Source: Escherichia coli
GTDB taxonomy: Bacteria > Pseudomonadota > Gammaproteobacteria > Enterobacterales > Enterobacteriaceae
Assembly (NCBI RefSeq): GCF_003790525.1
Contig: NZ_CP033635.1
Direction: 5' to 3' (one strand)
Length of the DNA: 64,000 nucleotides
Shown here: in pieces, positions 49,153-50,624 of the stretch
Position numbering within the stretch: position 1 is the first letter of the stretch
How the letters are laid out: the number at the start of each line of letters is the position of its first letter
Notes under the pieces: generated by a model
The model's database searches: none
What the model saw: only the letters and a program-made list of their open reading frames with translations
Told to the model about the DNA's origin: nothing
Translations under genes and position numbers: made by a program

Positions 49153-50624
49153 TTAATGAACAAAACGTCCGGCACGAGACATAAATTCTTCTTCGCTCAT
49201 CTCCTGTCCGTTAAAAACAACTTTACCCGGTGTATAACGCAGCTGCAGCGAGGCGGTATTGTTGTCAATCGTGATTAACTGAAACATCTGACCTAATGTC
49301 ATCATCCCGCTGATTTGTTTATCAGCCTGCTTTTGCGCTTTTTCCGCATCCATTCCTTCAGATAAATTAAGCTGTTTTGCGGTTTCTGTGACGACATTAA
49401 GCGGTAACTTCACATCAAAATTGAGCGATTTAATATCTTTGTTTGTGGATGATGAAGATTTGGCGGGGTCGGCAATACTGATATCCAGATTGGCATTTAG
49501 TTCGCCGAGTGCGTTCTTCCATCTTACCGGTTGTTTAATGGTCGGCTCACTTTTTTGTAATAACGGTAAATACTCTTTGAACAATGCAGCATTCACTTCT
49601 TGCAGAGCAACTTCATCGTTTGCTAACTCAGGGTGTGCAGCAAGCTGCTTCTGCATCGCAATGTTATACTGGATGATAAATTGGCGCACCGCTGAGGGAT
49701 CAATAGATTCAGCAATCAATGACCACTCACCACTACCGAGTTGCTGATTCCCTTTTATTAACTTATCAAGTTCGTAGGTCAGATTGACATTGATATAATC
49801 TTTGTCTTTAACGCGATCCAGCCTGGTTTTTGCAACGAAAGCATCGATTTGGGCAACGACTTCCCCCTGGTTGATAATATTAACCTGATTAAATTTCGAC
49901 TCGCTTTCACCAACCGGAAATTTCTTTTCTTCTAATCGTGTCAGAGAATCAAAGGTAAAAATTTTCGCCGTTACTTTGTTCATTGGTGAAAATTGCAGAA
50001 CAATATCTTCGACTTTGCCTTCAATATCCAGGTTAGACAATGAACTACCATCACCATTAAAAGTAAACTGGCCCTTACCAAAGGAAAACTTTCCATACTC
50101 TGCAGGGGCAACATCTAATGTCGTGGAGAATGAGCCACCAAACGCGAACCTCAATGTCGCTTCCACGGGCGATTTATTTTTCGCGGCGATAAATAGCGGT
50201 TGTGTCAGTTCATTATTCACTAAGTTCACTTTTGCCGCTGCCAGTGCCGGGATGACATTACCATGCATTAACATTGTGATGGGCAACGGACCGTGCTCAA
50301 CATCCACATCAAATGCAACTTTCTGGCCTGGCTTGATATTGAGATCGGGTGCACCGTTATCAAATGTTATTTGCATTTGAAAATGAGAATTAAAAAAGCC
50401 TTTGTCAAAGTTTTTATAACTTAACGTCATATCGTAGGCATGTTCACCTTTTTTTTAGCATCGTTAAAATCTTTAATAAACTTTTCGACACCAGGCTGAA
50501 TTTGCGTACCTGTGTACCATGTGCCACCACCCCAGATTACGGCTAACGCAACAATAACACCTGTAGCTGACTTACGTATCATATAAATATTCCCTGATAA
50601 AACAGCAAAACTTTGAATATCCAC
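49153..50624 (-). pseudogene. yihF: yihF (DUF945-family protein) interrupted by a frameshift in an A8 tract (window T-run 50449-50456); ORF track shows two pieces, 65 aa and 425 aa
   Basis: The two ORFs are in adjacent frames with a 4-nt overlap; inserting one A in the run fuses them (…DAKKKGEHAYDMTLSYKNFDKG…); could be a real mutation or a homopolymer sequencing error. Confidence 0.7.

Follow-up and report, generated by a model that had tools for sequence, protein, structure and literature searches.

The stretch of DNA analysed here, referred to below as the window, comprises 64,000 nucleotides of one strand of the Escherichia coli contig NZ_CP033635.1 (assembly GCF_003790525.1), numbered from its first letter, and the element of interest within it is yihF, a gene of the DUF945/YdgA family that lies on the minus strand at 49153..50582 and carries a one-base frameshift in a run of eight adenines (A8). 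The chromosome of strain SMS-3-5 (NC_010498.1) matches the window at 100% identity in every stretch queried, window position p corresponding to NC_010498.1 position 4389564 - p, and the gene is known there as RefSeq locus ECSMS35_RS21380. The annotated gene order is dsbA-yihF-yihG-polA, with yihG convergent with yihF, and the same order is annotated in SMS-3-5 and in six other genomes, so that the position of yihF is conserved. The gene is 1430 nt long here and 1431 nt long in intact alleles, and alignment places the single-base gap in the tract. That yihF is a pseudogene in this background is already known, as the RefSeq/PGAP label of ECSMS35_RS21380 is "frameshifted".

The A8 tract, which reads as T8 on the plus strand (TTTTTTTT), occupies 50449..50456 and covers Lys codons 43-45 of the minus-strand gene (gene nt 127-134), where most E. 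coli carry AAAAAGAAA and the intact allele of the same haplotype carries AAAAAAAAA. An earlier note on this DNA, made from the letters alone, had described a DUF945-family yihF broken by a -1 frameshift at this T8 and divided into open reading frames (ORFs) of 65 and 425 amino acids (aa) with a 4-nt overlap. Both observations stand: the break is seen in the sequence of the window, and the ORF list contains 50427..50624 (minus strand, 65 aa, with a GTG start) and 49153..50430 (minus strand, 425 aa), which overlap at 50427-50430, ATGA on the minus strand. The ATG at 50582 (MIRK...), which is the start used by RefSeq, is the likely biological start, and from it the upstream ORF has 51 codons (50427..50582, minus strand), made up of YihF residues 1-45 and VNMPTI before a TGA (...DAKKK-VNMPTI-stop). 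The 425-codon ORF (49153..50430, minus strand) encodes the beta-rich body of YihF and starts at the internal Met52, whose ATG overlaps the upstream TGA; when the sequence was read by eye, no Shine-Dalgarno (SD) motif was seen 5-10 nt from this ATG.

When one base is added in the tract, a 1431-nt ORF of 476 codons results, reading ...DAKKKGEHAYDMTLSYKNFDKG... and giving the junction peptide ...KKKGEHAYDMTLSYK. The earlier claim that one base restores a single frame is thus borne out, and its length of about 490 codons is obtained only from the upstream GTG, the annotated ATG giving 476. The repaired 476-aa protein matches Pfam PF06097 (DUF945) over residues 4-464 with 356 bits (cut-off 26.8) and E = 4e-106, and the NCBIfam YihF equivalog PRK11367 over residues 1-476 with 1026 bits (cut-off 738). 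Relative to intact orthologues, the indel is not a multiple of three, as expected of a frameshift pseudogene. Three A/T runs of at least 8 nt occur in the 64-kb window, and only the yihF tract lies inside coding DNA; an A9 at 34652-34660 between typA and yihL and a T8 at 44932-44939 between polA and yihA are intergenic, a placing that fits with long A/T runs being avoided within genes.

The distribution of the lesion was assessed in 5,417 complete E. coli genomes by exact 39/40-mer blastn queries for the A8, A9 and TAG variants of the tract. Counting alleles by megablast identity bands with a 201-nt query was tried and dropped, since a gap and a single-nucleotide polymorphism (SNP), or A9 and A5GA3 (the tract interrupted by one G), cannot be distinguished in this way. 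Of the 5,417 genomes, 24 contain the exact A8 39-mer; the 201-nt query spanning the tract likewise finds 100% matches in 24 complete genomes, and the next-best matches show a one-base gap. No genomes other than these 24 reach 99.9% identity over window positions 46000-54000 (next best 99.2%) or 99% over positions 1-25000 (where all 24 are listed at 100.0%; next best 98.8%). Because the same 24 stand apart in both of these separate parts of the window, they form one tight clone, and A8 is inherited throughout it, being present in 24/24 members and in none of the other 5,393 complete genomes. The sources of these genomes are human, chicken, dog, pangolin and river or surface water, and many different laboratories assembled them. 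SMS-3-5 belongs to sequence type (ST) 354 (PMC9174282), which is placed under phylogroup F (PMC12817139).

Draft assemblies extend this picture. A lookup among about 15 billion predicted proteins, drawn from NCBI, ENA and Logan assemblies, gave exact matches to the truncated peptide of 51 aa on 406 contigs and to the 425-aa product on 336, the truncated peptide being indexed in 710 blocks of public assemblies; of the 27 matching metagenome contigs, one has A8 and 26 have A5GA3. The lesion is therefore reproduced in independently sequenced relatives, both among the 24 complete genomes and on draft contigs, and the yihF A8 allele is best regarded as a true frameshift pseudogene, passed on by vertical descent and characteristic of the SMS-3-5/ST354 clone, a reading to which a probability of about 0.85 can be assigned. 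The earlier note had offered a strain-specific inactivation as one possibility; with 24 complete genomes and hundreds of draft assemblies the change is not strain-specific, and its inactivating effect is something that we infer. It had also held that orthologues in other strains with the same 8-nt tract and two ORFs would speak against a disruption, and such orthologues were found, but only in clone-mates and hence in a trivial sense.

The usual E. coli tract is GCT AAA AAG AAA GGT, that is A5-G-A3 and not A9, and the nearest intact complete genomes (AR_0077, 2014C-3075 and AR_0372) carry AAAAAGAAA. An A9 40-mer with the GCT flank matched 0 of the 5,417 complete genomes, a test in which A9 with a GCG flank would hide in the 97.5% identity band. 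The A9 allele nevertheless exists in public draft assemblies, where the exact repaired 476-aa protein is encoded and where all four loci retrieved carry AAAAAAAAA; within the same haplotype A9 is found in 34 index blocks and A8 in 710, the A9 set belonging partly to sister lineages. The implication of the earlier note that the intact allele is A9 consequently fails for the species at large, in which the alignment gives A5GA3, and holds for the draft assemblies of the same haplotype.

The A8 and A9 backgrounds were compared by alignment of 8 kb around yihF. One A9 locus (L004, GCA_965254735.1) departs from the clone member XH992 at a single variable site, the tract itself, and another (L007, GCA_044099555.1) equals SMS-3-5 over 4.6-5.1 kb. 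The other two A9 loci (L005, GCA_023276035.1, and L006, GCA_031229405.1) carry the yihF haplotype of ST354, to which each adds 1-2 private SNPs, and diverge from the clone in both flanks, srkA-mobB and polA, the complete genomes closest to L005 being the clone itself at 99.1%. As L005 and L006 are sister lineages, A9 is the parsimonious ancestor of A8, and a history in two steps is the most parsimonious one: a synonymous AAG>AAA change at Lys44 would have removed the interruption from AAAAAGAAA and so produced A9 in the ancestor shared by this haplotype, and replication slippage would later have shortened A9 to A8 in the ancestor of ST354. This order of events, which we infer from the alleles that survive, is quite probable.

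Two further features of the same 8 kb were observed. A segment of about 3.7 kb (~47724-51455, dsbA-yihF-yihG) is nearly identical between the ST354 clone and the L005/L006 sister lineage and is flanked by dozens of SNPs, and is thus a recombination mosaic around yihF. In addition, the A8 genomes fall into two subsets, 16 at 100.0% and 8 at 99.9% identity, whose sole difference over 8 kb is a patch of 82 bp at 53892-53973, between mobB and the 5S ribosomal RNA (rRNA) gene, with nine substitutions and two indels; in this comparison XH992 was the only member of the 8-genome subset that was aligned, and the patch, situated by the rRNA operon, looks like a single gene-conversion or recombination event.

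The expected effect on the protein was considered with an AlphaFold2 model of YihF built from 89 diverse homologues (mean predicted local distance difference test score 94.7; predicted template modelling score 0.89). In the model, residues 3-45 form one long helix, after which comes a large beta-rich body with a curved beta-sheet, and the sole strongly hydrophobic segment of YihF is residues 5-20. The frameshift point falls, in the model, directly after residue 45, at the end of the N-terminal anchor helix. A ribosome translating the A8 allele would leave the frame after Lys45, add VNMPTI and stop, and its 51-aa product would be the anchor/stalk helix with six foreign residues, while the 425-codon body would stay open and have neither a ribosome-binding site of its own nor a targeting helix. 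On the predicted structure and the reading frames, the A8 allele is most likely a null or a strong hypomorph. A PDB sequence search with YihF returned no homologue, and nothing informative was found in the literature on the function of yihF, YdgA or DUF945.

The yihF gene is also broken in other E. coli lineages by other mutations. An amber codon at Lys44 (AAG>TAG, giving GCT AAA TAG AAA GGT at the equivalent of 50451-50453; loci L040, L041 and L045) is present, by exact 40-mer, in 354 of the 5,417 complete genomes (6.5%), and its carriers include the ST131 O25b:H4 strain EC958 as well as JJ1887, ZH193 and 81009, the PGAP label for yihF in the ST131 strain JJ1887 being "internal stop". In the O111:H8 strain 1056-1, codon ~17 of yihF is altered from TCTGGGGGGGTGG to TCT-GGGTGGTGG by the loss of one base from a G-run and a G>T change, and the gene carries the PGAP label "frameshifted"; this copy, also 1430 nt long, was considered as the same event and rejected, its lesion lying in the G-run at codon ~17. 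The yihF of a further O111:H8 strain, 9662, is likewise 1430 nt long. A spread sample of 59 other genomes contained an ISKpn26 insertion in yihF (CH4804) and a truncated copy (strain 600055), and a few genomes hold only part of the gene. Since A8, the Lys44 amber, the O111:H8 deletion and the insertion all occur, yihF is dispensable and repeatedly lost in E. coli, which is a useful background for assigning a role to the DUF945 family.

The A8 allele has one property that could soften its effect. The mutant messenger RNA (mRNA) has the codons GCU AAA AAA AAG GUG and contains, at 50448..50454 (minus strand), an A_AAA_AAG heptamer that is in register with the 51-codon ORF (zero frame) and fits the X_XXY_YYZ pattern of slippery heptamers. 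A tandem -1 slip at this site would lead into GGU GAA CAU... (...KKKGEHAY...) and give the exact wild-type protein. Few heptamers shift as readily in E. coli; its frequency is about 0.3% when unstimulated and no more than about 3.7% with the most favourable 3' sequence (PMC4066793), and frequencies above 1% have been cited for it (PMC10861913). No stable stimulatory RNA structure was found in the 80 nt downstream (-6.8 kcal/mol, z = +0.88, with 168 of 200 shuffles folding as well), no SD-like stimulator was seen upstream of the heptamer on inspection, and the two-frame arrangement is not conserved, the complete genomes other than the 24 being single-frame or broken differently. At the level of transcription, selection against A/T runs in bacterial genes is evident from 9 nt (PMC1088944), and rescue by transcriptional slippage at A8-A9 frameshifts has been documented elsewhere (PMC1088944, PMC12946587). 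Reporters with poly(A) runs showed almost no rescue by E. coli RNA polymerase and no detectable activity with fewer than 8 A's (PMC6260861). The conserved run of at least 9 A/T that characterizes transcriptional slippage sites is not found here, the run being of 8 and most E. coli having A5GA3. Taken together, these points suggest that a leak could plausibly reach about 1%, but that a functional amount of YihF is unlikely to be made.

Several points weigh against a clone-wide pseudogene with the history proposed above. The 425-codon remainder shows no further lesions, and because it is undamaged the mutation is either young or not fully inactivating; the in-frame A_AAA_AAG of the mutant mRNA could, moreover, let some read-through reach the correct frame. 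With regard to the ST354 label, the sequence type was obtained for SMS-3-5 among the 24, a literature search for typing of the other 23 genomes as ST354 gave no matches, and clonality is taken instead from their near-identity over the window. A9 is also present in backgrounds identical to those of clone members over 5-8 kb (L004 and L007), and from these clone-identical A9 genomes it follows that either the tract changed length more than once or the ancestral A9 was kept in a minor sub-branch; whichever origin is correct, at least one A8/A9 length change occurred. An attempt to polarise A8 and A9 within the clone from flanks of 5-9 kb failed, as these flanks have too few informative sites to settle the matter and the only difference in them is the 82-bp patch. 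The alternative to two steps is that one G was deleted from AAAAAGAAA, giving A8 directly, and that the A9 alleles are later +A revertants. A single founding mutation would then be enough, the absence of A9 from all 5,417 complete genomes in the GCT-flank test would be accounted for, and the A9 alleles in clone-identical backgrounds could be such revertants. However, A9 is also found in the two diverged sister sub-lineages L005 and L006, with their private yihF SNPs and different flanks, which would require several independent reversions or transfers, and slippage within A9 is, by its mechanism, a far more frequent event than the loss of a lone G. The one-step origin is therefore unlikely. The A8 of the SMS-3-5 record had also been proposed to be an artefact of sequencing or assembly at a homopolymer that in truth has nine bases, and homopolymers are indeed classic sites of indel errors, while A9 occurs with identical flanks in a few draft assemblies. 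Such an error is effectively excluded by the presence of A8 in 24 independently produced complete genomes and by hundreds of draft contigs (336-406 with the exact truncated products, in NCBI, ENA and Logan data), and the annotation of the 64-kb window contains no second full-length gene that is frameshifted.

If the allele is real and clonal, the remaining alternatives concern its function. A split gene, in which a 51-aa anchor and a 425-aa body re-initiated at ATGA are both made and cooperate, would agree with the intact downstream ORF and with the capacity of ATGA stop/start overlaps to support translational coupling. The overlap is, however, automatic, as the first stop of the shifted frame falls beside the internal Met52, and an identical 425-aa ORF is predicted after the amber codon of ST131, a lesion unrelated to A8, so that the 4-nt overlap is incidental; the 425-aa product would also be without the only hydrophobic targeting segment, and its ORF is not preceded by any SD motif that could be seen. 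Cooperation between the two products is hence very hard to credit. Rescue by recoding, by which meaningful amounts of full-length YihF would be obtained from a "pseudo-pseudogene" through -1 frameshifting, +A slippage of RNA polymerase, or both, draws on the zero-frame heptamer, whose -1 shift gives the exact wild-type amino acids and which is highly shift-prone in E. coli (PMC4066793, PMC10861913), and on the precedent of slippage rescue at A8-A9 runs (PMC1088944, PMC12946587). It is rendered improbable by the lack of a downstream structure and of a visible upstream SD-like element, by the poor slippage of E. coli RNA polymerase on poly(A) (PMC6260861), by an expected leak of about 1% or less, and by its confinement to one clone, unlike a conserved programmed site.

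The earlier suggestion of a phase-variable slippage site would make the tract a contingency-type switch, with slipped-strand mispairing converting A8 (OFF) and A9 (ON) into each other often enough to be of use. This is not supported, every one of the 24 complete clone genomes being A8. The two alleles do occur in backgrounds identical over 5-8 kb (L004 and XH992; L007 and SMS-3-5), and A9 encodes an intact protein, so that this polymorphism, at low frequency in near-identical backgrounds, keeps a slight probability of a switch alive. Against it stand the ratio of 710 to 34 index blocks in favour of A8, with A9 partly in sister lineages, and the interrupted tract of the rest of E. coli, which cannot slip; an A run of 8-9 nt is, furthermore, short relative to classical contingency tracts, and a switch thus appears very improbable. 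The elements may also be combined, in that the silent AAG>AAA change would have made a reversible A9/A8 switch of YihF in ST354 whose OFF allele leaks wild-type protein by -1 frameshifting. This is a doubtful construction with little probability; if it were true, the Lys44 amber in 354 complete genomes, ST131 strains such as JJ1887 among them, would hint at selection for reduced YihF in extra-intestinal clones that are successful.

Read as a clone-fixed pseudogene, yihF A8 resembles the lineage-specific frameshift pseudogenes of enterobacteria in the one-base contraction of an A/T run, the non-essential gene, the clonal inheritance, the open downstream ORF and the RefSeq flag, and the only extra in yihF, compared with ordinary frameshift pseudogenes, is that its run would first have been created by the synonymous AAG>AAA change. 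Bacterial pseudo-pseudogenes (Baranov et al. 2005, PMC1088944), the human apoB A8 allele and DMD similarly have a frameshift in an A run in which +A in the mRNA would restore the frame, and human DMD c.2281delG (A4GA5 -> A9, PMC12946587) starts from an interrupted A-G-A tract, like yihF. The bacterial cases of Baranov et al. have slippage-prone runs of 9A, whereas yihF has A8, a run on which E. coli RNA polymerase slips poorly (PMC6260861). With dnaX-type -1 sites, yihF shares the identical zero-frame heptamer in its mutant mRNA and a -1 shift that enters the productive frame; unlike them, it has no downstream stem-loop and no visible SD-like stimulator, is confined to one clone, and would be expected to shift at about 0.3% (PMC4066793). 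The contingency loci of Haemophilus, Neisseria and Campylobacter are alike in their 5' homopolymer, their envelope-associated protein and the occurrence of in-frame and out-of-frame alleles among close isolates, but the yihF tract is short, is missing from the rest of the species and has one dominant state (24/24; 710 against 34).

The yihF A8 allele is therefore an ordinary clone-fixed pseudogene, and nothing in it challenges current understanding. Its practical value is modest: the deletion is a clean clone-specific marker for SMS-3-5/ST354, a sequence type that occurs in people, poultry and pets. On the two-step history, it would also be a natural example of a silent codon change that creates a mutational hot spot by which the gene is later destroyed.

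The sequences around yihF were scanned for signals of transcription. A terminator-like hairpin with a T-run follows dsbA at 50694..50719 (minus strand), two sigma-70-like promoter matches, which are consensus matches only, lie upstream of the yihF ATG at 50616..50684 (minus strand), and a terminator-like, GC-rich hairpin of 14 bp, with no strand assigned, is located at 49115..49148 between the convergent yihG and yihF. From these hairpins and promoter-like sites, yihF is predicted to be a monocistronic transcription unit of its own, and since it lies between the dsbA terminator and the convergent yihG, polar or other effects on its neighbours would not be expected. Between dsbA and yihF, strain AR_0372 has an inserted IS200C-family transposase gene, and the A9 draft contigs L006 and L007 end 50-80 nt upstream of yihF, where a repeat element may sit.

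Elsewhere in the window, three other regions were recorded. At 1578-5721, between fdhD and yiiG, two adjacent genes encode an "ATP-binding protein" (611 aa) and a "hypothetical protein" (768 aa) and could represent an accessory island. Window positions 1-25000 are matched over at least 80% of their length, in one place, by only 617 of 5,425 genomes, so part of these 25 kb is variable. A transposase gene with an adjacent truncated coding sequence ("partial in the middle of a contig") is found at 14288-16102, between fabY and yiiE, and a hypothetical pseudogene of 167 nt, labelled "frameshifted; internal stop", lies at 43553-43719, between yihA and yihI.

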